From: a virus
UHGV virus genome: UHGV-0116964
DNA length: 41,926 nt
Reading direction: 5' to 3' (one strand)
The position numbers and the translations under genes were made by a program. The notes under the pieces were generated by a model. It saw only the letters and a program-made list of their open reading frames with translations, did not search any database and was not told the DNA's origin. The number at the start of each line of letters is the position of its first letter. Positions within the stretch are counted from its first letter, which is position 1. Below, in pieces: positions 8,652 to 41,926 of this stretch.

Positions 8652-9047
8652 CTACTCACCATCCCCCTTAATCCGCCGTCCCATGTACTTGGCGTACAGT
8701 TCATCGAGTTCTTTCAACCGTAGAGATACGATCCGCAACATGTTCTGTTGTTCTTCTTCGTTTGGGAGTTGATTATAGAGTTCCAACAGTCTCCGTTCGT
8801 CGTGTCTCAAACCGTCCTTAGCATCCACGTCCTGACCTAGAACCCACTCAAGACTTACGCCTAGCGCATCGGCAAGTTTTATTGCTGAGCTTTTTCCTAT
8901 CGCTCCTCTGACAAACCAGTTGTTGACTGATTGTGCGCTCACACCACAGATTCTCGCTATATCCGCTTTGGATATGCGCTTCTTCTCGATGATTTCATTT
9001 AACCGCCGAACCTGCGGGTTATCTGTTTGGTGTGTGTTTTTTCTCAT
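8652..9047 (-). CDS. Prophage repressor, DicA/RacR-like HTH (XRE family)
   Basis: 131 aa; N-terminal HTH (ISKADIARICGVSAQSVNNW); C-terminal LLELYNQLPNEEE resembles the DicA tail; divergent from a cro-like gene across operator palindromes. Confidence 0.8.
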   Translation of the reverse strand: MRKNTHQTDNPQVRRLNEIIEKKRISKADIARICGVSAQSVNNWFVRGAIGKSSAIKLADALGVSLEWVLGQDVDAKDGLRHDERRLLELYNQLPNEEEQQNMLRIVSLRLKELDELYAKYMGRRIKGDGE

Positions 9048-14805: not shown

Positions 14806-15588
14806 ATGAACCTTGAAAACACAGTGAAATACCACTTCGCTAAATCCACACTGATTAGCGATTCTCCGCGCGCTACCGCCTCCGATTCACTGACCGGTAC
14901 CGACATAATGGCTGCCATGGGCATGACGCAGGAACGCGCCGCAATGGGTTACAGCGCCTTCCTCGGCAAGATGGGCATAAGCAATAACGACCGGGATCGG
15001 GCGATCGGTCTGCTGGCTGAGTACGCGATGACAAAATGCGACAAGGTTGCCGCACTGCGTAAGCTCGGTGCCGCGGTTAAACCTCAGGTGATGCACCAGT
15101 TGGCCACCTTCGCTTTTGAGGACTATTCCCGCAGCGCTGCCAGCGTGAAGCAGTGCGATTGTTGTGACGGTCAGGGCTTCATTGAGGCTGACGTGTTTAC
15201 CAATAAATTCCGTAAGCCAGAAGGGAAAATGACCGTGTCCGGGATGGTGAAGGTCAAAGAATCCATCAAAGTGCTATGCAAAAAGTGTAATGGCTCTGGT
15301 GTGGTTAGTGCTTCTTGCAGTGATTGCCATGGGCGCGGCAAGGCAGTGAACCAGGCTCTTACTGAGAAACAGGGCGTTCCTGTTCTGGCTGACTGTAAGC
15401 GCTGCGGAGGGCGTGGGTATGAACGACTTCCGTCGACTGAAGCCTATGCTGCTGTATGCCAGATTACTGACGCCATTAGCCTGGACACCTGGAAAAAGTC
15501 TGTTAAGCCATTCTACGACCTGCTGATCACGAAATTTGATATCGAAGAGTCCTGGGCCGAAAAACAGCTTAAGCAGATAACGCGGTAA
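14806..15588 (+). CDS. Late-gene antiterminator Q-like protein with four CxxCxGxG zinc-finger repeats
   Basis: 260 aa; position between rusA and the lysis genes; followed by a terminator about 100 nt downstream. Confidence 0.6.
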   Translation: MNLENTVKYHFAKSTLISDSPRATASDSLTGTDIMAAMGMTQERAAMGYSAFLGKMGISNNDRDRAIGLLAEYAMTKCDKVAALRKLGAAVKPQVMHQLATFAFEDYSRSAASVKQCDCCDGQGFIEADVFTNKFRKPEGKMTVSGMVKVKESIKVLCKKCNGSGVVSASCSDCHGRGKAVNQALTEKQGVPVLADCKRCGGRGYERLPSTEAYAAVCQITDAISLDTWKKSVKPFYDLLITKFDIEESWAEKQLKQITR

Positions 15589-15792: not shown

Positions 15793-16362
15793 ATGAATAA
15801 TCTACCCGATGATTACTTTTTGGATGCGGACGACGAACTCGTTGCTTTTCTGGAGAAGCAGGGCGAGGATTGTATACGCGAAATTCACCAGTCCAACGCA
15901 CTAAACAAAGAAAATGGCCAGAAGTTATTGAGTATACTCATTGCTGGCGTGGGCTCGTCATTTTTGTTATTAACGCAACGTACAGGTTTTGATTACCTCA
16001 CCGCTGGAATGTCTGTTTTTTTAGTCTACTGGGCAATGTGTGCGGCTTATCTTGTTCGCTGCGTCCTCGTTGTAAGGTCACGAGCTCTCGTGTCATCGAC
16101 ACCCTATGCGCTTTACCATGATGGCTATAAAGGGTTTACTGAAGATGATTACACTGGTTTTGAGTCGAAAGGATTTTCAGGAAAGCGTTCAACATTGAAC
16201 GTCTTGCGGCGCTACCGGCTTGCGGATTTAACCAGAATGGCTGAAATGAGTAAAAAAGAGAATGCCAGAATAGGCCGAGAACTAGAAAGGGTAAGGATCG
16301 CTACAATCCTCACCCCTGTTTGTGCACTTGTAATCTCAGTACTTACTTACCTTTTTTTCTGA
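15793..16362 (+). CDS. Cargo membrane protein (3 predicted TM helices) at the Q-lysis junction
   Basis: 189 aa track ORF; AT-richer than neighbours; no recognised domain. Confidence 0.5.
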   Translation: MNNLPDDYFLDADDELVAFLEKQGEDCIREIHQSNALNKENGQKLLSILIAGVGSSFLLLTQRTGFDYLTAGMSVFLVYWAMCAAYLVRCVLVVRSRALVSSTPYALYHDGYKGFTEDDYTGFESKGFSGKRSTLNVLRRYRLADLTRMAEMSKKENARIGRELERVRIATILTPVCALVISVLTYLFF

Positions 16363-16726: not shown

Positions 16727-17113
16727 ATGTCCGATCCAATTTCCGGTACTGGGCTGGCTGGTGGTGCCCTGACGGGTGCCAGTGTTTATGGACTGCTGAC
16801 CGGAACTGATTACGGCGTTGTATTTGGCGCATTTGCAGGGGCTGTATTCTACATAGCAACAGCAGCGGATCTGAGCGCATCGCGCCGACTGGCATATTTT
16901 ATCGTGTCGTATATTGCCGGGATCCTTTGCTCTGGGTTGGTTGGCTCCAAGCTGGCAAGCTTGACCGGATACAGTGATAAACCTCTGGATGCCATTGGTG
17001 CCGTAATCGTATCTGCTTTAGCCGTTAAGATCCTGACGTTCCTGAATAATCAGGATATCGGGTCGCTGGTGGCGCTCATAACGCGCCGGGGAGGTTCAGG
17101 TGGAGCTAAATGA
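16727..17113 (+). CDS. Holin (multi-TM, Gly/Ala-rich)
   Basis: 128 aa; AGAGGGGG SD; first gene of the lysis cassette. Confidence 0.6.
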   Translation: MSDPISGTGLAGGALTGASVYGLLTGTDYGVVFGAFAGAVFYIATAADLSASRRLAYFIVSYIAGILCSGLVGSKLASLTGYSDKPLDAIGAVIVSALAVKILTFLNNQDIGSLVALITRRGGSGGAK

Positions 17114-17381
17114 CCCGACAGCAACTATAAACGCGCTGTTATGTGCTTGTGTTGTTATTACTCTGATGTTTTATCGTCGTGGTGATTCGCGGCATCGTCC
17201 TTGGGTTTCACGTTTAGCCTGGCTGATTACTGTTACATACAGTGCTGTTCCGTTGGCCTATCTCTGTGGGATTTATCCCCATTCCTCATGGCCCATTATC
17301 GTGGCGAATACTATTTTTCTTTCCGTGCTGGTGGCCGTCAGAGGCAACGTTGCACGCCTGGTTGATCATCTGAGGCACTAA
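17100..17381 (+). CDS. Second holin-like / antiholin membrane protein
   Basis: 93 aa with 2-3 hydrophobic helices, between holin and endolysin. Confidence 0.5.
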   Translation: MELNDPTATINALLCACVVITLMFYRRGDSRHRPWVSRLAWLITVTYSAVPLAYLCGIYPHSSWPIIVANTIFLSVLVAVRGNVARLVDHLRH

Positions 17382-17995
17382 TGAACCAACAATTATTTCA
17401 AAAGGCGGCTGGTATCAGCGCCGGACTGGCTGTGCGCTGGTTTCAACCAGTAGATGCAGCGATGAAAGAATTCGGCATTACAGCACCCGCGGATCAGGCC
17501 ATGTTCATCGCTCAGGTAGGTCATGAGTCTGGTGGCTTTAGCGCTGTAGTTGAAAATTTGAACTACACACCATCTGCGCTGGTGGCGACGTTCGGAAAGA
17601 GGATCACACAGCAGCAGGCTGATGCCCTTGGCAGAACATCCGGACATGCAGCTCGTCAGGATGCTATTGCCAATCTGGTGTATAGCAACCGCCTGGGTAA
17701 CAAAGCGCCCGGCGACGGCTGGAAATATCGCGGCAGAGGGTTAATTCAAATCACTGGCCTCGACAATTATCGCACCTGCGGGGCTGCTCTGAAGTTAGAT
17801 TTGGTGACTTCACCTGAACAACTGGAACAGGAACTACAGGCTGCGCGCTCAGCTGCATGGTTCTACACCTCTAAAGGCTGCATGATCTACGGTGCCGATA
17901 TTAATCGTGTTACTCGCATCATTAACGGCGGTCTGAACGGTATTGAGGATCGTAAGGTCCGATACAACAAGGCGCGGGCGGCGCTGCTGGTATGA
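17381..17995 (+). CDS. Endolysin, glycoside hydrolase family 19-like
   Basis: 204 aa; FIAQVGHESGGF...YRGRGLIQITG...INGGLNG motifs typical of GH19 phage lysozymes. Confidence 0.8.
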   Translation: MNQQLFQKAAGISAGLAVRWFQPVDAAMKEFGITAPADQAMFIAQVGHESGGFSAVVENLNYTPSALVATFGKRITQQQADALGRTSGHAARQDAIANLVYSNRLGNKAPGDGWKYRGRGLIQITGLDNYRTCGAALKLDLVTSPEQLEQELQAARSAAWFYTSKGCMIYGADINRVTRIINGGLNGIEDRKVRYNKARAALLV

Positions 17996-18384
17996 AGATG
18001 AGTTATTGGGCGCTTATTTTAACGTTTATTGCTTGTATTGCTGGTGGTCTTGTCTGGTCAGCGAATCATTACCATGGAAAGTTTCTGGAGGAACAGCGGC
18101 GCGCTGACGATGCAGAACAGCGCGCTGATTCCTTTGAGACCATCACCGCGAATGTCCTGCGCACCGTAGCAATAACGAACATCATTCTGGAGACAAATCA
18201 ATATGCCAGGCAGCAGATCGCACTGGAGTCACAGAGAACCGAGAACGATATCAAGGCTGCTGTTGCGGATGATGATTGTGCTGTTCGTTTTGTGCCTTCT
18301 GGCGCAGTTAAGCGGCTGCACGACTACGCGAACGGTCTACGTTCCAGTTCCGGTGGTTCCGTTACCAGCCAACCTGACGGCTGA
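17992..18384 (+). CDS. Rz-like i-spanin
   Basis: 130 aa; N-terminal TM helix, then a charged coiled-coil region. Confidence 0.7.
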   Translation: MKMSYWALILTFIACIAGGLVWSANHYHGKFLEEQRRADDAEQRADSFETITANVLRTVAITNIILETNQYARQQIALESQRTENDIKAAVADDDCAVRFVPSGAVKRLHDYANGLRSSSGGSVTSQPDG

Positions 18385-31124: not shown

Positions 31125-33381
31125 CGCAGATACGATTAAAGACTTCCTTGTTTCGCTGGGATTCGATATCGATCAGGCTGGCGCTAATAAGTTTGAAGCC
31201 GTGCTGAAAGGCGTTACCGCAAACGTTCTGAAGGTCGGCGCGGTGGTGGAAGGCGCAGCGCTGAGCATTGTCGGATTTACCACCCAGATCGCGAATGGTC
31301 TGGATAAAATTTACTGGGCATCCCAACGGACGGGGGCCAGCGTCCAGGGCATCAAAGCGCTGGGCTATGCCGCGTCGCAAACCGGTGCCAGCGCCGAGTC
31401 GGCCATGTCCTCCCTCGAAGGGCTGGCCGGTTTCATGCGTAGCAATCCGGGGGCGGAAGGCTTCCTGAACCGTCTTGGTGTCCAGACCCGAGATGCCAGC
31501 GGAAAGATGCGTGATACTGCGGCCATCTTTACTGGCGTTGGGCAAAAGCTCAACAACATGCCGTATTACCGCGCGAAGCAATACGCGCAGATGCTTGGCA
31601 TCGATGAAAACACGCTGATGGCGATGCGGCGCGGCATGAATGGCTTTACCGCCGATTACCAGTCTATGCTGCAAAAGACTGGGTTCAACGCTGATAAGGC
31701 GGCTGTGCAGTCCAATAAATTCATGACGTCCATGCGCGGGCTTACGTCGCTGTTCGGCATTATGCGGGACAAGATCGGCTCAAACCTCGCTGGTGGTCTT
31801 GCTGGTTCGCTGGACAGCCTGCGGCGGCGCATCCTCGACAACTTCCCGAAGATTGAAGAGACGCTGACCAGAGTTATTAAAGGCGTGATCTGGCTTGCGA
31901 ACGCCTTCACGCGAATGGCGTGGCGGCTCATACAGGGCGCTGGCTCTGTCATTGACTGGTGGAAGCGTCTTGACGATGGCAGTAAAAATCTGCTGAAAAT
32001 ATTCGGTGCTCTACTTGTCGCATGGCGTCTGCTTAATTCTGCGTTCCTGAAATCCCCGATTGGAATTATCACCACGCTGATTCTGGCGATCGGATTACTC
32101 TATGACGATTATCAGACGTGGAAAGAAGGCGGTAAAAGCCTGATTGACTGGTCCAAGTGGGAGCCTGCAATAGAAAAGGCGAAAAAGGCAATTCTCTGGC
32201 TGCGCGATAAGCTTCTGGGGCTGAAAGATTCTGTTGGTGGATGGCAGAACTCGCTGGAAATTTTGGCTACTTTCATCGCTGGGGTATGGGTAACAAAAGT
32301 ATTGGGAGCATTCGCAAAAATATCCGGTCTTCCGATACCTCCATGGCTTAAATTATGGGGAGCGTATGCTGGTTACCTGGTTTCAGATCGTGAAAACATA
32401 AAAGCCAGTGCTAAATCATCTTTGGACTATACCAAAAGGAACATTGGTGATGCTCTTGCTACGGTTGGCATCAAAACCGACCTTGGGCGAAAAGATGTTA
32501 GCGAGGTAAGAGAATGGCCCGCATGGATGGATTGGCTGCATGGTGGCCCAGGTAAGATTATTCGTCAGGCGCAAAGCAATGGCGTCGTTTATGGCGATAA
32601 TGTTCAGCCTGACATTCCCGGGGCGGAACAGCATGTTCGTAGTAATGAAATTGCCCCGCATGAAAGAGATGAAATAAAAAACCGTCAGCAGGCTGCTAAT
32701 GGTTATCTTGAAAAAATCTCAGACGGGATTGCCAAAATCGGTAATTTATTTTTCTCCCCGGCTGGAGCTGCTGAAATCTCTCCAAATATATCGGGTGACC
32801 CCTCCCAGTTTGCGCAATCAGTCAAACGTCCACAGGCCACAGCCCAGGGCAAAGTATTGCTCGACTGGATGGGGCCAATGTTCAATAAACTTGAGTCGCT
32901 TTATCAACTTCCAGCTGGTCTATTGAAAAGTGTGGCGATAACCGAGTCAGGTGGTAACCAGTTCGCCATGTCCGGCGCGGGTGCAAAGGGGCTGTTCCAG
33001 TTCATGGATGGCACGGCGCGAGACATGGGCCTGCGTGGTAACGATGTGTTCGACCCGGAAAAGTCAGCTCAGGCAGCCGCTAAGTACCTTAGCCAGCTAT
33101 TGCGGCAGAACGGCGGAGACCTTAGCAAAGCACTTGCATCATATAACTGGGGAATCGGGAACGTTCAACGTTATGGAATGGGGCTAATGCCGCAGGAAAC
33201 GCGCAATTACATTCCGAAAGTAATGAGCAATATGCCCACCAGCGCCCCGGTGATTCAGCAGGAAACGAACATTAACATCCACGGCGTTTCCGATCCTCGC
33301 GAAGCTGCCCGTTTGACTGTTGACCGTCAAAAGGGTGTGAATTCACAGTTAACCCAGCAACTCCCCGCAGGACCGAGATAA
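31114..33381 (+). CDS. Tape measure protein with C-terminal lytic transglycosylase (SLT) domain
   Basis: 755 aa; ESGGNQFAMSGAGAKGLFQFMDGTARDMG is an SLT catalytic motif. Confidence 0.75.
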   Translation: MSGNADTIKDFLVSLGFDIDQAGANKFEAVLKGVTANVLKVGAVVEGAALSIVGFTTQIANGLDKIYWASQRTGASVQGIKALGYAASQTGASAESAMSSLEGLAGFMRSNPGAEGFLNRLGVQTRDASGKMRDTAAIFTGVGQKLNNMPYYRAKQYAQMLGIDENTLMAMRRGMNGFTADYQSMLQKTGFNADKAAVQSNKFMTSMRGLTSLFGIMRDKIGSNLAGGLAGSLDSLRRRILDNFPKIEETLTRVIKGVIWLANAFTRMAWRLIQGAGSVIDWWKRLDDGSKNLLKIFGALLVAWRLLNSAFLKSPIGIITTLILAIGLLYDDYQTWKEGGKSLIDWSKWEPAIEKAKKAILWLRDKLLGLKDSVGGWQNSLEILATFIAGVWVTKVLGAFAKISGLPIPPWLKLWGAYAGYLVSDRENIKASAKSSLDYTKRNIGDALATVGIKTDLGRKDVSEVREWPAWMDWLHGGPGKIIRQAQSNGVVYGDNVQPDIPGAEQHVRSNEIAPHERDEIKNRQQAANGYLEKISDGIAKIGNLFFSPAGAAEISPNISGDPSQFAQSVKRPQATAQGKVLLDWMGPMFNKLESLYQLPAGLLKSVAITESGGNQFAMSGAGAKGLFQFMDGTARDMGLRGNDVFDPEKSAQAAAKYLSQLLRQNGGDLSKALASYNWGIGNVQRYGMGLMPQETRNYIPKVMSNMPTSAPVIQQETNINIHGVSDPREAARLTVDRQKGVNSQLTQQLPAGPR

Positions 33382-34292: not shown

Positions 34293-35357
34293 ATGTCTCT
34301 TAACTGGATGCGCCATTTTGAGTTGCAGCTGTTGGACCAGAACGGGCAGGGTATTTCCCTGTCTGATTTTAAGGTCACGTTCCAGATCGAGTGGGCAGAT
34401 ACACGCTGGCCGCGCGTGGCAAACGTGAAAATTTACAACCTTTCGACCGATACCACGAACAAGATACTGGGGCAGGAGTTTGCAAAAATTCGCATCATTG
34501 CCGGGTATGACGGTATTGCGCCGGATGTTGATGCGAGCCAGGTTGGTGTCGCCCGGGAGATTTCACCAGACCAGGTAGGGCAGGTGAACGGTCAGAACTA
34601 CGGCCTGATATTTGACGGTGATATTCGCTTCACCGTCACCGGGAAGGACAACATCACCGATTCCTGGGTGCTGATTCAGGCCATCAGTAACCACGAAGCG
34701 TTCCTCTACGCGACTACCATCACCACGCTTGCCGCTGGCTATACCGTTGCGGATCTGCACCGGGCGACGATGCAGGATTTCAACGCGTTCGGCGTGACAC
34801 AGGGCATTACCGGCGATTTTCCTGATACCGTGTTTCCTCGTGGCCGCGCGATTTACTCATCCAGCCGCAACGTGATGGATAATATTGCTGCGCAGTGCAA
34901 AGCGACATGGCAACTGGTGGATGGTCAGGTCCAGATGGTGCCGGAGGATAAATATATTCACGAAGCCATTGTGTTGAATGCCAATACTGGCCTGATCGGT
35001 ATGCCGCAACAAACGATGGGCGGCGGAGTAAACGTGCGGTGCCTGATAAACCCAAACATCCGTATTAATGGTCTTATCCAGCTCGATCAGGCTTCGGTGT
35101 ACCGCGCCACGCTCGGCAATAGCGAAATAGCACAGTCGCCCGGGCGTATCACCGAAACAGAAGAGAACGGCAACCGTGTGCTGACCGGCACGACGTCACA
35201 GGCTGCCAGCATTGCGACGGATGGCGTTTATATCGTCAAAGCTATCGACTATACTGGCGACACCAGAGGTCAGGCGTGGTACATGGATTTGATGTGTTTT
35301 GCGCGTGGCGCTCGTGATCTTTATAGCCCGAAAGCAATGCAAGGGACGACGAATTAG
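34293..35357 (+). CDS. Baseplate hub-like protein (putative)
   Basis: 354 aa track ORF. Confidence 0.45.
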   Translation: MSLNWMRHFELQLLDQNGQGISLSDFKVTFQIEWADTRWPRVANVKIYNLSTDTTNKILGQEFAKIRIIAGYDGIAPDVDASQVGVAREISPDQVGQVNGQNYGLIFDGDIRFTVTGKDNITDSWVLIQAISNHEAFLYATTITTLAAGYTVADLHRATMQDFNAFGVTQGITGDFPDTVFPRGRAIYSSSRNVMDNIAAQCKATWQLVDGQVQMVPEDKYIHEAIVLNANTGLIGMPQQTMGGGVNVRCLINPNIRINGLIQLDQASVYRATLGNSEIAQSPGRITETEENGNRVLTGTTSQAASIATDGVYIVKAIDYTGDTRGQAWYMDLMCFARGARDLYSPKAMQGTTN

Positions 35358-35369
35358 TGAGGTGGGGCC

Positions 35370-35714
35370 GTGAGACATTTACTTTGCACTGTTACCGTGT
35401 TCGCGGTGCTTATATCAGCACCCGCTTTTGCGGATCAGCAATGTGGTGATTTTAAAATCCATTGGGCAGATGATGGCTTAGCCAGAATCAATGGCGCAAA
35501 GCCAGAAATGCAAAAAATCACCTTCCTGAAAAACAAAGGCGATTATAACAATATCAAGATGGATTGGCGTATGGCTACCGATCAGCCTGGAAGATGGGTT
35601 GGTCTTGAGTACATCAATCGAAACGGCAAAGCCATTCTCAACGCACAGTGGTTGCAAGCCAGCATGGATTCGCCGCGTCAGTATGCAACATACGACTGCC
35701 GAAAAGTAAAATAG
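35370..35714 (+). CDS. Cargo secreted protein with signal peptide
   Basis: 114 aa; MRHLLCTVTVFAVLISAPAFA then DQQ (signal-peptidase-like AxA site); two cysteines; followed by an AT-rich island. Confidence 0.55.
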   Translation: MRHLLCTVTVFAVLISAPAFADQQCGDFKIHWADDGLARINGAKPEMQKITFLKNKGDYNNIKMDWRMATDQPGRWVGLEYINRNGKAILNAQWLQASMDSPRQYATYDCRKVK

Positions 35715-35732
35715 CCCGCCAGATAGGCGGGC
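35701..35732 (-). terminator. Intrinsic terminator for the minus-strand cargo gene (hairpin shared with the + gene)
   Basis: GCCCGCC-AGATA-GGCGGGC perfect 7-bp stem; U-tract only on the minus strand. Confidence 0.55.
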
Positions 35733-35737
35733 ATGCG

Positions 35738-36028
35738 TCAAAAATATTGAGCTTTAATTATAATAAACACAATAATTACGAACAGGATGTTTCTAATTAT
35801 TTTTTGCTTATGAGTAAGTTGTTTTTTTTCTGTCGATTTCCCGGGAGAGTAAAGGTTAGTGGTATGCGACAGCCCCGTGCCGGGAAGGCCATTTGTCATC
35901 TTTACGCCTTTTTTCCCGATGTTAATGGTGGAACCTTTACCACCAATTGAAGTGCTTACTCCGCTTTTATTAATGTTGATCGCGAGTCCGGGCGCAATCC
36001 GGATTCTTTTACGAAATCTAAATCCCAT
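35738..36028 (-). CDS. DUF4236-like protein with C-terminal TM anchor (antisense cargo gene)
   Basis: 96 aa; MGFRFRKRIRIAPGLAININKSGVSTSIGGKG matches the conserved DUF4236 N-terminus as I recall it; AGGAG SD 7 nt upstream. Confidence 0.6.
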   Translation of the reverse strand: MGFRFRKRIRIAPGLAININKSGVSTSIGGKGSTINIGKKGVKMTNGLPGTGLSHTTNLYSPGKSTEKKQLTHKQKIIRNILFVIIVFIIIKAQYF

Positions 36029-36215
36029 TTGTTACTCCTGTAGTCAATAATGCGATGGTGCAGGTCCACTCTATGGCGGCTTCATGGCTGAAATTGATTT
36101 TCAATGCTTACTTGTTGCAAACATATCCTAATACACCTTGTGAATGTGTGCCATTGCAGCGGAAAAGCCTTACTTCACACTGATGTAGCTTAGTTACTAA
36201 GAGATAATTGATACC

Positions 36216-36239
36216 AAACCAGCTTCGGCTGGTTTTTTT
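36216..36239 (+). terminator. Intrinsic terminator
   Basis: AAACCAGC-TTCG-GCTGGTTT perfect stem followed by a T-run, 12 nt before the next tail gene. Confidence 0.6.
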
Positions 36240-36250
36240 ATGGGGGTTTT

Positions 36251-36991
36251 ATGCCAATTCCAACTCAATCACAGATCGGCGGTGAGCAGCAGACCGCGCA
36301 GGCCATTGCCGATTCGGTGTCGACCCAGATGCGCGTAGCGATGCCCGGCATCATTCAGTCGTTCGATCCTGAGACTGTTACCTGCACAGTAGAGGTGGCG
36401 CTACGCGGTATTGTTGGCGATGGATCCACCGAATTAAAACCGCTGGTGGATGTGCCGGTCATCTTCCCGCGCGGCGGCGGTTGCACGCTGACCTTTCCGG
36501 TAAAAGAAGGCGACGAGTGCCTCCTGATTTTTGCTGACCGTTGCATCGATTTTTGGTGGCAGAGCGGCGGCGTTCAGGAGACCGTCGACCCGCGCCAGCA
36601 TGACTTATCTGATGCGTTCGCCATCGTTGGCCCGCAGTCGCAAGCACGGAAAATCAGCGGTATCAGTACCAGCGCCGCGCAGCTGCGAACCGATGATGGT
36701 GCGGCGTTTGTAGAAGTCGCCGCAGGACATAACATCACCATTAAAACACCGGGCCAGCTTACAGCTACGGCTGAAGGTGGAACGACAATCACATCCCCGA
36801 CTATCACGCTGAACGGCAACGTAACGATTAATGGCAACTTGTCTCAGGGAATGGGCGAAAGCGGCGGTACTGCGACGATGCTTGGGCCGGTGACGGTAAC
36901 GAATGACGTAACAGCTTCTGGTATCAGTGTCGCCACGCATAAACATGGCGGAGTACAGACTGGCGGGGGAACTACCGGAGGGCCGCAATAA
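36251..36991 (+). CDS. Baseplate spike / central protein (Mu gp45-like)
   Basis: 246 aa; Gly/Thr-rich C-terminal repeats typical of spike proteins. Confidence 0.55.
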   Translation: MPIPTQSQIGGEQQTAQAIADSVSTQMRVAMPGIIQSFDPETVTCTVEVALRGIVGDGSTELKPLVDVPVIFPRGGGCTLTFPVKEGDECLLIFADRCIDFWWQSGGVQETVDPRQHDLSDAFAIVGPQSQARKISGISTSAAQLRTDDGAAFVEVAAGHNITIKTPGQLTATAEGGTTITSPTITLNGNVTINGNLSQGMGESGGTATMLGPVTVTNDVTASGISVATHKHGGVQTGGGTTGGPQ

Positions 36992-39221: not shown

Positions 39222-39847
39222 TGGCTGGAACTAATGATTTTAAAGCGTTTGCGACAGATGCTAATGCAAATGTTACCTCGCAGGAGGAATGGGAGACGCT
39301 AACCGCACTGAAGAAAGGATTCTCCTCGGGTAAAGCATCCAGCGCACAGGTCAGTAAAGCGCTGCGCCAACCGTCGACGATGGCGGCTGTACTGGGGCAG
39401 TTTATCGCGAACGCCGAACTGGACGCGCTCGATGATGGTGACGTTGATGGACTGGTGGCAAAGCTGGCGACAGCGATTACCACAAACCTTGGTTTAGGAG
39501 AAGCGGCGAAAAGGGATGTGGGCACAGGAGATAATCAGATACCGGATATGGGAGCATTCGCTTCTGGTTCGGGATGGTTCAGGCTACCAGGTGGATATAT
39601 TGTTCAGTTTGGCACTTTTTCAGGAAACACGACCCGCTTTATCAGTGGACACTTCCCTATACCATTCCCTAATCAGCCGATGGTTTCAGTCAGTGTTATG
39701 TCTGATGCCGTTCAGTCAGACCCGTCGAATCCTGCCCCGCAGGTTTTGTCTGTAAATTTTGAACATATCAGTAATTCAGCGTGGCGTGTGGCAACCAGTG
39801 ATATCTCACAGCAATACAGATTCAGTTATATTTCGATAGGACGGTAG
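39221..39847 (+). CDS. Tail fibre protein (constant N-terminal ~93 aa plus current variable C-terminus)
   Basis: Internal ATG of track ORF 39203..39847; crossover site lies in codons ~88-94. Confidence 0.6.
   Translation: MAGTNDFKAFATDANANVTSQEEWETLTALKKGFSSGKASSAQVSKALRQPSTMAAVLGQFIANAELDALDDGDVDGLVAKLATAITTNLGLGEAAKRDVGTGDNQIPDMGAFASGSGWFRLPGGYIVQFGTFSGNTTRFISGHFPIPFPNQPMVSVSVMSDAVQSDPSNPAPQVLSVNFEHISNSAWRVATSDISQQYRFSYISIGR
39477..39502. promoter_or_regulatory. Invertase crossover site 1 (TTACCACAAACCTTGGTTTAGGAGAA)
   Basis: AAACC-TT-GGTTT core as in hix/gix/cix sites; inverted partner at about 41293. Confidence 0.6.
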
Positions 39848-39849
39848 AA

Positions 39850-40290
39850 ATGCAGAAATATATTTTCAGTGCCGATAAAAATGCGTTTTTCCCTGTGGAG
39901 CTTAAAATCGCTTATCAGGAATCCGGCGAATGGCCCGATGATGGAATCGAAATTGACGACACTGTTGCCGCCGAATTTATGAAGGAAGCACCAGAAGGAA
40001 AATACAGAGGTGTCATCGACGGAATGCCAGCATGGATTGATATTCCACCGCCAACTCATGAGGAACAAATTGCCGCAGCCGAACTGGAAAAGCAGCAATT
40101 GATTAATCAGGCCAACGATTATATGAACAGTAAACAATGGCCTGGTAAAGCGGCTATTGGTCGTCTGAAAGGTGACGAGCTGGCGCAATATAATTTGTGG
40201 CTGGATTATCTGGACGCACTGGAGCTGGTCGATACTTCCGGTGCGCCAGATATTGAATGGCCTACACCTCCGGCAGTTCAGGCCAGATGA
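39850..40290 (+). CDS. Tail fibre assembly protein (Tfa/U-like)
   Basis: 146 aa; C-terminal DIEWPTPP motif. Confidence 0.75.
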   Translation: MQKYIFSADKNAFFPVELKIAYQESGEWPDDGIEIDDTVAAEFMKEAPEGKYRGVIDGMPAWIDIPPPTHEEQIAAAELEKQQLINQANDYMNSKQWPGKAAIGRLKGDELAQYNLWLDYLDALELVDTSGAPDIEWPTPPAVQAR

Positions 40291-40870
40291 CATCCGGCGC
40301 GGTGCTGGTATCTGTTGCCGTCACCGCGTCAATGTAATCCAGCACAGCGTTAAGGCGGGTTGTTTCTGCCTGCGTCAGTTTACGTCCGGCCTGCAATTTC
40401 AGTTGAATCAGACTGATGGAAGCCATAGCAGCATCAATCAGCGACTGGCGCTGTGCTTCTGCCGCGTCTACTGCGGCGCTATATTGTGCCTCGGTATCGG
40501 TCACCCATTTCTCTCCATCCCATTTATCGTATGGCGTTAATGGGGCGATAGTGGTGGTTCCTTCCGGGTATTCTCCCAACTGTGAAATAGTCACAGGTTT
40601 GCCAGTAGCCGTGCTGTAAACGGTTTCGCCGCGATGGTCTGCAACGTATTCCCAACCGGTCAAATCAGCCGTCCGGCAGACAGCAAAGCCGTCCTTTTTG
40701 CTGATTGGCGCATCCACGCATGAATTGCCTGGAACGCCAACGCCAACGGGAAGATATTCTAACGATGCGGAAGTAAACTCCATCGTTTCTCCGTTGTAGT
40801 TGTAAACAGTGATAAAGCCAGCTTCCGTGGCGAACCCGTTTTCATCCAGGGTGATTTCTTTTGTGGTCAT
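40262..40870 (-). CDS. Alternative tail fibre assembly protein (U'-like)
   Basis: 202 aa on the opposite strand; C-terminal DVIWPELP motif; 3' ends of the two assembly genes overlap. Confidence 0.75.
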   Translation of the reverse strand: MTTKEITLDENGFATEAGFITVYNYNGETMEFTSASLEYLPVGVGVPGNSCVDAPISKKDGFAVCRTADLTGWEYVADHRGETVYSTATGKPVTISQLGEYPEGTTTIAPLTPYDKWDGEKWVTDTEAQYSAAVDAAEAQRQSLIDAAMASISLIQLKLQAGRKLTQAETTRLNAVLDYIDAVTATDTSTAPDVIWPELPEV

Positions 40871-41292
40871 TATACTGCCCTTACAATGTAGTTGAATGCA
40901 ATGTTGCGCGGACGGGTTTCTGAACCACCTGGCGCGTTGGTCGCTATAGTTTTCAAGTTAATTCTCGCGCCAGTGGCATCAGCCCCCACGACGTATGGGC
41001 CGCCCGTTCCGTCTGGACCAGTCGCCCCCCATATTTCTTGGAAATAGTGGTCGTGGGCTTTAAACGTATCACTTTGTAACGAAAGGATTGTTCGCCCTGA
41101 ATCCACACCACGCCCGTCATCCCAGCCACGAATGAATTCACCGCGTAAATCAGGCAATTTATTTGTCGGGTAAGCCTTTGCCAGTTCCGGGTATTCTTCA
41201 GCAGAAAAATCCGCACCATTGCATTTCAGCCAGCCTGTTGGCGGTGTGGCTGAAGGCCACGGAACAGGCACCCCAACAGGTAATGCTGAGCC
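40870..41292 (-). CDS. Alternative tail-fibre C-terminal segment (Sv'-like), expressed only after inversion
   Basis: Track ORF 40870..41325; begins inside crossover site 2; tail-collar-like motifs; shares GLGE with the constant-part junction. Confidence 0.6.
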   Translation of the reverse strand, partial: GSALPVGVPVPWPSATPPTGWLKCNGADFSAEEYPELAKAYPTNKLPDLRGEFIRGWDDGRGVDSGRTILSLQSDTFKAHDHYFQEIWGATGPDGTGGPYVVGADATGARINLKTIATNAPGGSETRPRNIAFNYIVRAV

Positions 41293-41318
41293 TTCTCCCA
41301 AACCAACCTTTTTTATAA
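41293..41318. promoter_or_regulatory. Invertase crossover site 2 (TTCTCCCAAACCAACCTTTTTTATAA)
   Basis: Matches the reverse complement of site 1 at 20 of 26 positions, including the central AA. Confidence 0.55.
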
Positions 41319-41377
41319 CCATCAAAAATCTGGTGATGCTTCGCCGTTTCTCCTGTTTTCATAACAGGAGAAATCCC

Positions 41378-41926
41378 ATGATTTACGGTTATGCCCGAGT
41401 ATCAACAAACCACCAGGACACTGAATTGCAACTAACGGCGCTCAAGTCAGCGGGTTGTGAGAAAATTTTTGAAGAGCATGCCAGCGGGAGGAAATCGAAT
41501 CGGCCGGTTCTAAAACGGCTGATCGCCACTATGCAGCCGGGGGATGAACTGGTGGTCTGGAAGCTGGACAGGATAGGCCGCAACGTTCTGCATGCGCTGT
41601 TGATGTTCCAGCAGTTACAGGAAAAGGGTATCAACTTCCGCAGTATTACCGATGGCGTGGATCTCAAAACAGCCAGCGGCCGCTATAACTTTCGTAACAT
41701 CCTTTCCGCAGCACAATATGAATCTGATCTTAATAGCGAACGTACCTTAGCAGGGCTGGCCGTAGCCAGGGCAAAAGGGCGAGTTGGTGGTCGCAGGCCT
41801 AAGTTCACGGATGAGCAATGGTGGGAAATGGGGGAGCGGATGGCAACCGGTGAATCACGACAAAGCGTATCAAAAACATATGGAGTAGGGCTCTCAACTC
41901 TGTATAAAAAGTTTCCAGCTAGCTGA
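41378..41926 (+). CDS. Serine DNA invertase (Hin/Gin/Cin/Pin family)
   Basis: Internal ATG of track ORF 41219..41926 with AGGAG SD; MIYGYARVSTNHQDTELQ...GRRPKF is the resolvase/invertase catalytic N-terminus with a C-terminal HTH. Confidence 0.9.
   Translation: MIYGYARVSTNHQDTELQLTALKSAGCEKIFEEHASGRKSNRPVLKRLIATMQPGDELVVWKLDRIGRNVLHALLMFQQLQEKGINFRSITDGVDLKTASGRYNFRNILSAAQYESDLNSERTLAGLAVARAKGRVGGRRPKFTDEQWWEMGERMATGESRQSVSKTYGVGLSTLYKKFPAS

Follow-up and report, generated by a model that had tools for sequence, protein, structure and literature searches.

A conserved gene for a predicted exported protein and an exchangeable cargo slot in the baseplate operon of a temperate enterobacterial myovirus

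The stretch of DNA analysed here (the window, UHGV virus genome UHGV-0116964, 41,926 nt) belongs to a temperate myovirus, an E. coli prophage, with lambdoid regulation, encoding a CI-like repressor, Q and a holin-endolysin-spanin set, and its phage relatives include Citrobacter phage Omnitron, Salmonella phage SEN34 and Klebsiella phage GZ7. Its baseplate hub gene (34293..35357, + strand) matches phrog_196 (baseplate hub, E 2.4e-83) and scores 26.6 bits against Pfam E217_GP41, slightly below the 27-bit cut-off. The gpV-like baseplate spike gene (36251..36991, + strand) has the PF18352 phage spike N-terminal domain (E 9.5e-42) and a GpV Apex motif. Between the two lie two small convergent genes, here called sec and DUF4236, a hairpin between them and a terminator just 5′ of gpV, in a block (35250-36300) with a GC content of 0.41-0.47 compared with 0.52-0.59 in the flanks. 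An earlier note had described an accessory block within the baseplate operon, and the genes, hairpin, terminator and GC dip on which that description was built are borne out. Since tail operons commonly host morons of any function, position alone is weak evidence for what the products do.

The first gene, sec (35370..35714, + strand), has a GTG start behind the Shine-Dalgarno (SD) sequence GAGGTG at 35359-35364, and encodes a predicted exported protein of 114 aa belonging to the phrog_3443 family of unknown function (E 6.9e-46; full-length, residues 2-114 on profile positions 2-114 of 115). The N-terminus, MRHLLCTVTVFAVLISAPAFA followed by DQQ, obeys the n/h/c and −3/−1 rules, with MRH, LLCTVTVFAVLIS and APAFA before D as the three regions; these are the features of a Sec-type (type I) signal peptide (aa 1-21, 35370-35432), and cleavage is predicted. 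By a simple rule-based test an export signal was recognised in 108 of 113 sec homologues, four more carry a lipobox and one is frameshifted. The sequence of the N-terminal 20 residues varies, yet a hydrophobic core and a small-x-small site are always kept. Cys25 and Cys110 are invariant among 32 aligned homologues, so that the secreted protein with a cleavable signal peptide and two cysteines, as it was first described, is upheld at the level of prediction. The mature protein is predicted to be an 8-stranded beta-barrel.

Nothing in Pfam, NCBIfam or PADLOC matched sec, and no similarity to known virulence families was found. Avidin and streptavidin barrels are also 8-stranded, and MliC/PliC are periplasmic barrel inhibitors. 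The likeness of sec to these proteins is one of fold class only, with no sign of a ligand pocket or of inhibitor motifs: a PDB profile search with sec returned weak avidin and nanobody matches only, sequence identity to avidin/streptavidin-like barrels is 4-10%, and there is no match to Pfam avidin or MliC at E up to 0.01. Judged by Pfam avidin membership and biotin-binding residues, sec falls outside the avidin/streptavidin family. When 1.84 billion representative proteins were searched exhaustively with the profile, only 57 sec relatives emerged, none of which bridges to a known family, and a literature search found no functional study of phrog_3443, DUF4236 or the two RefSeq proteins.

A sec homologue lies directly after the hub gene in 76 of 79 close relatives and in 32 of 36 distant enterobacterial prophages or genomes, among them Pantoea, Serratia, Yersinia and Rahnella; in three loci a lipoprotein stands in place of sec. 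In alleles with an unambiguous start, this start abuts or overlaps the hub stop within a few bases, and the intergenic space 5′ of sec is 12 nt or less. Being fixed after the hub and adjoining or overlapping its stop, sec sits in the late tail operon. The core of the gene is under purifying selection (dN/dS about 0.07), and its dS is about 1 or higher compared with 0.19 for the hub. When hubs are at least 94% identical, the median identity of sec is 68%, against 93-98% for the neighbouring genes. The last ~14 hub codons (from about 35310-35328) are part of the variable exchange block: the sec-allele homology break lies at 35309-35328, inside the hub 3′ end, and hub dN is 0.81 in codons 341-354 as against 0.009 in codons 1-340. 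Judged by these comparisons, sec is a real, selected gene, of which many old alleles have been shuffled as a module onto near-identical backbones, and it is a core gene of the phage lineage and not swappable cargo; its annotation is thereby corrected. Variation among the alleles did not follow that of gpV, plug, Dit, W or J (rho 0.02-0.08), nor that of the SLT or motif regions of the tape measure protein, TMP (rho 0.05-0.07), and thus gives no sign of a matched phage partner.

The second gene lies on the minus strand (35738..36028) and encodes a predicted tail-anchored membrane protein of 96 aa. Its DUF4236 domain (Pfam PF14020, aa 3-55, 35864-36022) scores 71.7 bits against a gathering score of 27, with residues 3-55 on profile positions 1-54 of 55. 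The AlphaFold2 model (pLDDT 82) has six beta-strands and a C-terminal hydrophobic helix at aa 72-94 (35747-35815), and this layout of domain, linker and hydrophobic tail is common to nearly all of 38 aligned DUF4236 homologues. The SD sequence AGGAG is located 6 nt before the ATG, at 36035-36039, and the proposed minus-strand DUF4236-like protein with a C-terminal anchor and a strong SD is therefore well founded. NCBIfam and PADLOC gave no match for the protein, and Pfam gives DUF4236 only. The gene is preceded by a 187-nt non-coding leader (36029..36215, minus strand), a presumed promoter region without a convincing σ70 consensus. This leader (100% to about 93% identical) was found only in loci carrying DUF4236, save for its last ~35 nt, which occur also in L053.

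DUF4236 was found in 24 of the 79 close relatives, always at 95-99% identity irrespective of the sec allele, whereas the sec alleles beside these cassettes are only 62-75% identical to one another. On this pattern the DUF4236 gene behaves as horizontally exchanged cargo. The same slot is used in Hafnia, Klebsiella and Serratia phages, whose DUF4236 genes are 57-67% identical to that of the window. A survey of relatives thus splits the cargo island that the earlier note had proposed: the term holds for the exchanged DUF4236 gene, but not for the near-universal sec, fixed after the hub. Nor do the two form one unit, since each is found without the other.

From the comparison of these loci, the true cargo slot is the interval from the sec stop codon to the lineage-wide terminator 5′ of gpV. 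Homology places the boundaries of the cargo at 35698-35717 on the left, relative to relatives without DUF4236, and at 36216-36233 on the right. At least 12 alternative cargoes occupy the slot among relatives, one of them a Phd/Doc toxin-antitoxin pair. Secreted or membrane proteins account for about half of the cargo families. Two minimal loci consist of hub, sec, terminator and gpV only. Neither sec and DUF4236, compared with the PADLOC-DB 2.0 defence models, nor ten alternative cargo proteins, compared with PADLOC models, gave a significant match. P2/P4-type hot spots are sites flanked by conserved core genes at which defence or accessory genes are exchanged. The present slot resembles them in its fixed insertion point, conserved core bounds and many alternative cargoes, and differs from them in lying inside a baseplate operon, in having a stop codon and a terminator as its limits, and in having a conserved gene for an exported protein ahead of it. 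Morons, in the sense of Juhala and Hendrix, are extra DNA of deviating composition with a promoter and terminator of their own and with expression from the repressed prophage (PMC3594210). The DUF4236 cassette shares with them its presence in some genomes only (the relatives without it hold other cargo or none), the deviating GC content of the block and a terminator of its own at 35714-35732, and the + strand genes of the slot have theirs at 36216-36239; sec departs from them in being present nearly everywhere. The block is in these respects an ordinary kind of prophage accessory-gene hot spot, of the tail-operon moron type.

The terminators deserve separate consideration. The central element (35714..35732, minus strand), found by scan at the left end of the cargo cassette, is a GC-rich hairpin, GCCCGCC and GGCGGGC separated by 5 nt, followed on the minus strand by TATTTTACTT; its 7-bp stem is all GC and its fold energy is −16.4 kcal/mol. 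It had been regarded as shared by the two convergent genes. The hairpin is indeed present, but its T-run is on the minus strand only, which makes it the intrinsic terminator of DUF4236 and not an evident two-way terminator. Hairpins with different stem sequences occur at the same place in the Hafnia, Klebsiella and Serratia loci. A second element found by the scan (36216..36239, + strand) forms the right edge of the slot. It is composed of AAACCAGC, TTCG, GCTGGTTT and a T-run, with an 8-bp stem and a 4-nt loop, and is located immediately 5′ of the gpV ribosome-binding site, 11 nt before the gpV ATG at 36251. In nearly all of 107 loci a terminator can be seen directly before the gpV start, irrespective of the cargo, and RNAalifold finds 7 consensus pairs, 4 of them with compensatory double changes. 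With its stem-loop, its U-tract and a pairing kept in evolution, the sequence at 36216-36239 has the features of an intrinsic terminator. The terminators said to bracket the island are therefore real and conserved, but the downstream one is present even in the two sec-only loci and is thus part of the backbone and not of the island.

A consensus terminator scan gave 4 sites where 2.1 were expected from shuffled sequence, which is no excess, and the reality of these elements accordingly rests on their conservation in relatives. No σ70 promoter above shuffle expectation was found for sec or DUF4236, and a relaxed scan upstream of DUF4236 gave 8/12 matches only. The window encodes a Q-like late antiterminator (14806..15588, + strand; phrog_127, anti-termination protein Q-like, E 5.7e-104), so that read-through of these terminators in late transcription, which had been suggested at the outset, is plausible; we infer from the sequence that the Q-like protein would act on them. 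Rfam matches to isrK, Trp-leader and rsmX at 36107-36241 were rejected as below threshold and terminator-driven; that to RF01394 (isrK sRNA) reaches 23.4 bits against a gathering threshold of 50, and its alignment rests mainly on the terminator hairpin. A 42-aa ORF on the + strand (36055-36183) was likewise considered spurious, being seen only in near-identical copies of the cassette and having no independent support.

These observations, function included, are best explained by an accessory module of two layers within the baseplate operon, a reading to which we assign a probability of roughly 0.5. The architecture of this module is very probable, and superinfection exclusion as its function is suggested tentatively. 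In the first layer, sec would be co-transcribed with the late tail genes, as its start at or next to the hub stop suggests, and its product would be exported through Sec, cleaved after AFA and folded in the periplasm as a disulfide-closed, 8-stranded beta-barrel. The second layer would be the slot between the sec stop and the conserved terminator, here taken by the antisense DUF4236 cassette, whose protein would place a basic beta-sheet domain in the cytoplasm and its C-terminal anchor in the inner membrane. The DUF4236 terminator would stop transcription running back into sec and hub. Polymerase unmodified by Q would halt at the terminators and leave the downstream tail genes silent in the lysogen, and Q-modified late transcription would pass both. 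The products probably act on the cell envelope of the host and not in the virion, perhaps keeping related phages out, and of the functions one may propose for them superinfection exclusion at DNA entry would be the most likely. An envelope location is supported by the export signal or lipobox in 112 of 113 sec homologues, by the invariant cysteine pair, by the lipoprotein that takes the place of sec in three loci, by the share of secreted or membrane proteins among the cargo and by the distant sec homologues outside tail clusters.

The hints for a role at DNA entry are indirect, and consist of the recurrence of DUF4236 in unrelated tail modules and of a TMP motif copied in fusions of sec. Tail modules of several unrelated phages contain a short DUF4236 gene: between TMP and M in a lambda-like Leclercia prophage, between K and I in Pseudomonas syringae, at a distance of two genes from the hub of a Pasteurella phage, and between chaperone and TMP in C. 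difficile phiCD38-2, a position equivalent to that of HK97 gene 15, the gp15 exclusion moron (PMC3594210). HK97 gp15, of the YebO family, resides in the inner membrane; the prophage expresses it, and it keeps DNA from entering in a manner dependent on the incoming tail (PMC3594210). Like gene 15, the DUF4236 gene of the window encodes a small membrane protein within a tail operon, deviates in GC content, has its own terminator and occurs in some relatives only. It differs in being antisense to the operon, in lying between hub and spike and in the predicted combination of a cytoplasmic beta-sheet domain with a C-terminal anchor, and no sequence relationship was detected between the DUF4236 protein and gp15.

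The second hint concerns the TMP, in which a motif census identified DDYQTWKEGGKSLIDWS (TMP aa 331-347, 32104..32154, + strand), nearly invariant in the lineage. Relatives of the phage encode 296-aa sec fusions with a ~35-residue copy of this TMP segment in their N-domain (fusion N-domain against TMP: BLASTP E 3e-6, hhalign probability 95.9%; phrog_3824 matches both proteins), and most of these fusion homologues have a lipobox, L-x-S/T-G-C. An SLT-like reading of the fusion N-domain, raised by a second BLASTP segment (E 0.003), was rejected because hhalign gave it no support. The window's own sec has no TMP-like N-domain.

Small phage proteins exported to the envelope, such as T5 Llp and P1 Sim, prevent related phages from binding their receptor or from delivering their DNA. 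Llp and Cor are encoded beside tail or receptor-binding genes, an action via the tape measure protein has been reported for Ltp, and Sim is a processed periplasmic protein. Cor of phi80 and N15 and Ltp of Streptococcus TP-J34 are envelope exclusion factors against related phages (PMC3594210, PMC3952083). Like Llp, Cor, Sim and Ltp, sec is small, phage-encoded and predicted to be exported to the envelope; unlike them, it has a type I signal peptide without a lipobox and belongs to a different fold family (phrog_3443), and it is not known to exclude phages. With AFA before DQQ and no lipobox, the window's sec is not a lipoprotein of the Llp/Cor/Ltp type; a lipobox together with the TMP-like motif is confined to the 296-aa fusions. 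One may go further, and rather doubtfully, to propose from these sequence likenesses a new family of periplasmic anti-injection factors, built on the phrog_3443 barrel as their shared module and present in almost all phages of this enterobacterial myovirus lineage. Such factors would intercept the incoming TMP, or the host factor that TMP binds, in the periplasm, the lipoprotein fusions would display their DDYQTWKEGGKSLIDWS copy as a decoy or poison subunit, and the short tail-anchored DUF4236 proteins would be the widespread inner-membrane counterpart in tail modules of Proteobacteria and Firmicutes phages.

Embedded in the operon, sec may be made only late in lytic growth, and it could then be a late lytic-cycle helper and not a lysogen function, exported to mask a receptor or envelope component, which would spare progeny from loss on infected cells or debris, or to tune lysis. 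The gene abuts or overlaps the hub stop, so that a promoter would find no space between the two. Phages recovered as free virions (Omnitron, GZ7 and SEN34) retain sec, and its near-universal presence in the lineage is what one would expect of a function required by the phage itself. We nevertheless consider this unlikely, since the window's holin/endolysin/spanin set is complete and has no need of sec, and since distant sec homologues stand alone outside tail clusters. Furthermore, the conserved terminator after the slot matters only for transcription unmodified by Q, which suggests some upstream promoter activity in the repressed state.

The earlier note proposed a secreted lysogenic-conversion factor expressed from the prophage. 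Such a factor, or a virulence factor, might affect adhesion, serum resistance or host interaction. Export, low GC and bracketing terminators agree with this, and lambda Lom and Bor offer examples of envelope morons with an effect on the host: lom and bor are expressed from the prophage and insulated by terminators that Q-antiterminated late transcription passes (PMC3594210). The resemblance lies in envelope proteins encoded within or beside a lambdoid late operon with terminators; lom and bor, however, are sporadic outer-membrane or lipoprotein genes with host-interaction phenotypes, and sec is lineage-universal and predicted to be soluble in the periplasm. Indeed, a type I signal peptide only would, on sequence grounds, bring sec to the periplasm, with no evident way out of the cell. 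The lineage is found in gut isolates but also in environmental or plant-associated genera (Pantoea, Rahnella, Rouxiella and Rosenbergiella), one sec allele is common to E. coli, Citrobacter, Salmonella and Enterobacter, and sec is unlike any known virulence family. A conversion factor is on balance improbable.

That sec and DUF4236 make up a single two-component system, such as an exported effector and its partner in the membrane, or a toxin and the matching immunity protein, is suggested by the recurrence of the convergent pair in diverged phages, as in Klebsiella GZ7 (sec 39%, DUF4236 60%) and in the Hafnia, Klebsiella and Serratia loci. This is very improbable: in about 70% of close relatives DUF4236 is missing and sec stands by itself or beside unrelated cargo; lambda-like prophages and the Firmicute phage phiCD38-2 have short DUF4236 genes but no sec; and near-identical DUF4236 cassettes stand beside divergent sec alleles. 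Equally hard to credit is a baseplate structural or assembly role for sec with the hydrophobic N-terminus being no signal peptide, which the conserved hub-spike position and the start coupled to the hub stop might suggest, given the varying N-terminus that keeps its core and cleavage site, the lipoboxes of some homologues, an invariant cysteine pair suited to an oxidising compartment, the lack of co-variation with any baseplate neighbour, the standalone copies outside tail clusters, and the lack of profile similarity to hub, plug, Dit, gpV, W, J and TMP when sec was compared with every tail protein by hhalign.

If the exclusion reading of the two-layer module is true, two widespread families, phrog_3443 and the short tail-anchored DUF4236 proteins, gain a testable role in blocking phage DNA entry, and the TMP motif in the exported fusions points to the targeted step and to the tape-measure segment concerned. 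The slot, between a stop codon and a conserved terminator, is also a recognisable place to mine for accessory or defence genes in SEN34/Omnitron-like prophages. Should the architecture alone prove right, the annotation is still corrected, the secreted protein being encoded by a lineage core gene and not by cargo. The prophage of E. coli TOK-001 is 99.9% identical, and RefSeq annotates the same sec CDS there.

The block between the baseplate hub gene (34293-35357; phrog_196, E 2.4e-83) and the gpV-like spike gene (36251-36991; spike N-terminal domain and Apex motif) holds two small convergent genes, a + strand ORF of 114 aa encoding an exported protein (35370-35714, here called sec) and a minus-strand ORF of 96 aa encoding a DUF4236 protein (35738-36028). 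A 7-bp all-GC hairpin (35714-35732) lies between their stop codons, and a stem of 8 bp followed by a T-run (36216-36239) stops 11 nt short of the gpV start. The GC content is 0.41-0.47 in the block versus 0.52-0.59 on both sides. RefSeq has exactly these two coding sequences in the E. coli TOK-001 prophage (99.9% identical) and names them "hypothetical protein" and "DUF4236 domain-containing protein", respectively. The convergent pair, the hairpin, the terminator and the AT-rich dip reported in the earlier note were all found, and the finding is real: the locus is a moron hot spot of a recognisable kind in the tail operon. Both genes belong to uncharacterised families and their functional reading is one that we infer. 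A terminator consensus scan gave about as many sites as shuffled sequence does (4 found versus 2.1 expected), and both terminators are credible because they are conserved in relatives, not because of the scan.

The earlier note took the secreted protein for cargo, but it is instead a conserved gene embedded in the operon. Among relatives sampled with the hub protein as query (80 viral contigs), a sec homologue immediately follows the hub in 76 of 79 close loci, and among those sampled with a sec profile it does so in 32 of 36 distant genomes, whose hubs are just 51-74% identical and which come from Pantoea, Serratia, Yersinia, Rahnella, Rouxiella and other genera. In alleles with an unambiguous start, the sec start overlaps the hub stop or is only a few bases away, which places sec in the late tail operon without intergenic space for a promoter. 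Two loci have sec as the sole gene in the hub-gpV gap of ~400 nt. The suggested survey of the island among related phages thus bore out the idea for the DUF4236 cassette, which is patchy (24 of 79 loci), and not for sec, which is near-universal.

Among 1406 locus pairs with hubs at least 94% identical, the median sec identity is 68%, and Dit, plug, gpV, W and J are 93-98% identical. This is not rapid evolution in place, since sec dS is saturated (~1 or more) versus 0.19 for the hub, and purifying selection on the mature core is strong (dN/dS 0.07). Sec is therefore present as many old alleles (34 clusters at 85% identity) which have been recombined onto similar backbones. The exchanged block extends from the last ~14 hub codons (35310-35328) to the terminator. 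Hub codons 341-354 (35310-35357) change along with the sec allele (dN 0.81, dN/dS ~0.8) while the remaining hub is nearly invariant, and the recombination boundary falls within the hub coding sequence. In three relatives (L026, L061 and L063) an unrelated 240-aa lipoprotein (lipobox LTSC) stands in place of sec, and the first gene after the hub still codes for an exported protein.

Sec N-termini vary in sequence and keep a hydrophobic core and a small-x-small site. A simple export-signal test was passed by 108 of 113 homologues; four more carry a lipobox, and the last, the sole apparently decayed copy (L007, 5078-5125), has a frameshifted N-terminus and has lost the signal peptide. Cys25 and Cys110 are invariant in all 32 aligned homologues, and in the AlphaFold2 model, a signal helix followed by eight beta-strands (pLDDT 82), a disulfide between them would link the first and last strands. 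Sec had no match in Pfam, NCBIfam or PADLOC, and none of the predicted viral structures matched it significantly. When 1.84 billion representatives were searched exhaustively with a profile, only 57 relatives came up; phrog_3443 is thus a narrow family, confined to Enterobacterales as sampled and nearly always in this prophage context.

The swappable cargo is limited to the stretch between the sec stop codon and a terminator that belongs to the backbone. Compared with relatives that carry other cargo, the window loses homology at 35698-35717, at the sec stop, and regains it at 36216-36233, at the terminator. Of 107 loci, nearly all have a hairpin with a T-run just 5′ of the gpV ribosome-binding site, irrespective of cargo and also where sec stands alone. 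Its stem varies by locus (AACCAGC, AACCCGCC, AAGCCGC, GGTCGCA, CCCCACC), with compensatory double changes in 4 of 7 consensus stem pairs. It follows that this terminator is part of the backbone and that cargo is inserted directly upstream of it. An Rfam isrK candidate (Hfq-binding sRNA; 36156-36238, + strand) was rejected at 23.4 bits versus a gathering score of 50; its alignment overlaps this terminator and is based mostly on the hairpin. Besides the DUF4236 cassette, the slot can contain two further secreted proteins (one of 128 aa, as in Omnitron, and one of 106-131 aa), a Phd/Doc toxin-antitoxin pair, ribbon-helix-helix proteins, anti-repressor-like proteins and several of unknown type. 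Membrane proteins occur there too: one is multi-pass, and another is anchored at its N-terminus and has a Mu-F-like end rich in cysteine. Of the cargo families, about half are secreted or membrane proteins, and none of those tested matches a PADLOC model. In the slot after sec (loci L021, L025, L046 and L074), some relatives carry the Phd/Doc-type pair and others a HEPN-like pair, anti-repressor-like proteins or the multi-pass membrane protein.

In the window the cassette extends from the hairpin at 35714 to ~36215. The hairpin described in the earlier note as shared is present, but its T-run is on the minus strand only, so that it serves the DUF4236 transcript, which would be ended before running antisense into sec. 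In Hafnia, Klebsiella and Serratia loci, hairpins with different stems occupy the matching place. Residues 3-55 of the protein match Pfam DUF4236 (71.7 bits), and the layout of domain, linker and hydrophobic tail recurs in almost every one of 38 aligned homologues, which come from many Proteobacteria. Since the N-terminus is basic and there is no signal peptide, a cytoplasmic domain with a C-terminal anchor in the inner membrane is likely. In close relatives, cassettes 95-99% identical stand beside sec alleles just 62-75% identical to each other, which marks recent exchange; the same slot holds DUF4236 genes 57-67% identical to that of the window in Hafnia, Klebsiella (GZ7) and Serratia phages, and the association with the site is therefore also old. 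Among complete E. coli genomes this allele occurs at 19 chromosomal sites, one per genome, and all 19 strains are among those matching the island.

Tail modules of unrelated phages also contain short DUF4236 genes: antisense between the tape measure gene and gpM in Leclercia/Enterobacter lambda-like prophages (L122-L125), between gpK and gpI/J in Pseudomonas syringae (L126-L129), two genes away from the baseplate hub in Pasteurella phage Pmp2 (L139), and between the tail chaperone and tape measure genes in C. difficile phage phiCD38-2 (L137), the position of the HK97 gene 15 moron. HK97 gp15 is a prophage-expressed inner-membrane protein that blocks DNA entry depending on the incoming tail (PMC3594210). 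A literature search found no functional study of DUF4236, and one alphaproteobacterial chromosomal copy sits outside any phage.

Ten fetched loci, nine from close relatives and one from a genome, encode a 296-aa protein in which the sec barrel forms the C-terminal domain behind a ~200-aa N-domain; these proteins are exported and mostly lipoproteins. The relatives are L029 (5031-5921), L032, L036, L038, L051, L056, L058, L060 and L062. A large protein collection holds eleven 296-aa clusters, all fusions and most with a lipobox. The N-domain contains DDCQTWKSKGKSLIDWSGE, a copy of a motif of the tape measure protein, which in the window reads DDYQTWKEGGKSLIDWS at residues 331-347 (32104-32154), directly after hydrophobic segments. 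The two segments match by BLASTP (E 3e-6) and hhalign (probability 95.9% over the segment), and the phrog_3824 profile matches both proteins. Throughout the lineage, E. coli, Hafnia and Pantoea included, the motif hardly varies, unlike its flanking sequence. Fusions displaying the most conserved tape measure segment would look like a decoy, or a poison subunit, acting at DNA entry; this is no more than suggestive, and the window's own sec is without this N-domain.

During lytic growth, Q-modified polymerase would start at the late promoter and transcribe hub, sec, the antisense cassette and the terminator before reaching gpV. In the repressed prophage, any unmodified transcription that starts in the cassette or in + strand cargo would halt at the two terminators, and the tail genes would thereby stay silent. 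A terminator with compensatory changes in a Q-antiterminated operon is sensible only if unmodified transcription exists. The protein products would go to the envelope and act there.

Cor, Llp, Sim and Ltp are precedents for phage-encoded envelope exclusion. Our best guess, to which we give a probability of about 0.35, is that the envelope products block DNA entry by related phages, because DUF4236 occurs in tail modules, sec fusions carry the tape measure motif, the slot is biased to the envelope, and HK97 gp15 and these four proteins offer precedents. Against this guess, sec alleles showed no co-variation with tail proteins or tape-measure regions, promoter scans gave nothing above chance for sec or DUF4236, and neither protein matched a defence model. 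The main rival, rather improbable in our view, is that sec helps late in the lytic cycle and is produced along with the tails, in whose operon it lies; distant copies (31-38% identity), solitary in Pantoea chromosomes and off tail clusters (L109, L117 and L118), argue that the protein can work without the baseplate. Two of these copies have a CI-like repressor, DinI and a glycosyltransferase nearby and lie close to fliF/fliG. Roles of sec in virulence or conversion, a two-gene system of sec and DUF4236, and a structural role of sec are less likely.

The window, ~42 kb, spans an entire temperate phage with lambdoid regulation genes, comprising a CI-like repressor (8652-9047), a Q-like antiterminator (14806-15588; phrog_127, E 5.7e-104) and a lysis set of two holins, endolysin and spanin (16727-18384), and with a contractile tail of the DUF3383/DUF3277 type. 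Citrobacter phage Omnitron is 92.5% identical across the genes flanking the block, and tail-gene order is unchanged in the more distant relatives Salmonella phage SEN34 and Klebsiella phage GZ7. The backbone is rare in E. coli (42 of 5426 complete genomes). A 189-aa ORF of unknown function (phrog_11870; 15793-16362, + strand) lies between the Q-like antiterminator and the holins, the classic lambdoid site for toxin or accessory genes. In TOK-001, where the prophage adjoins yciI, the equivalent of window ~39800-41900 has inverted tail-fibre-assembly and gp53-like genes beside a recombinase-family gene and looks like an invertible host-range segment.
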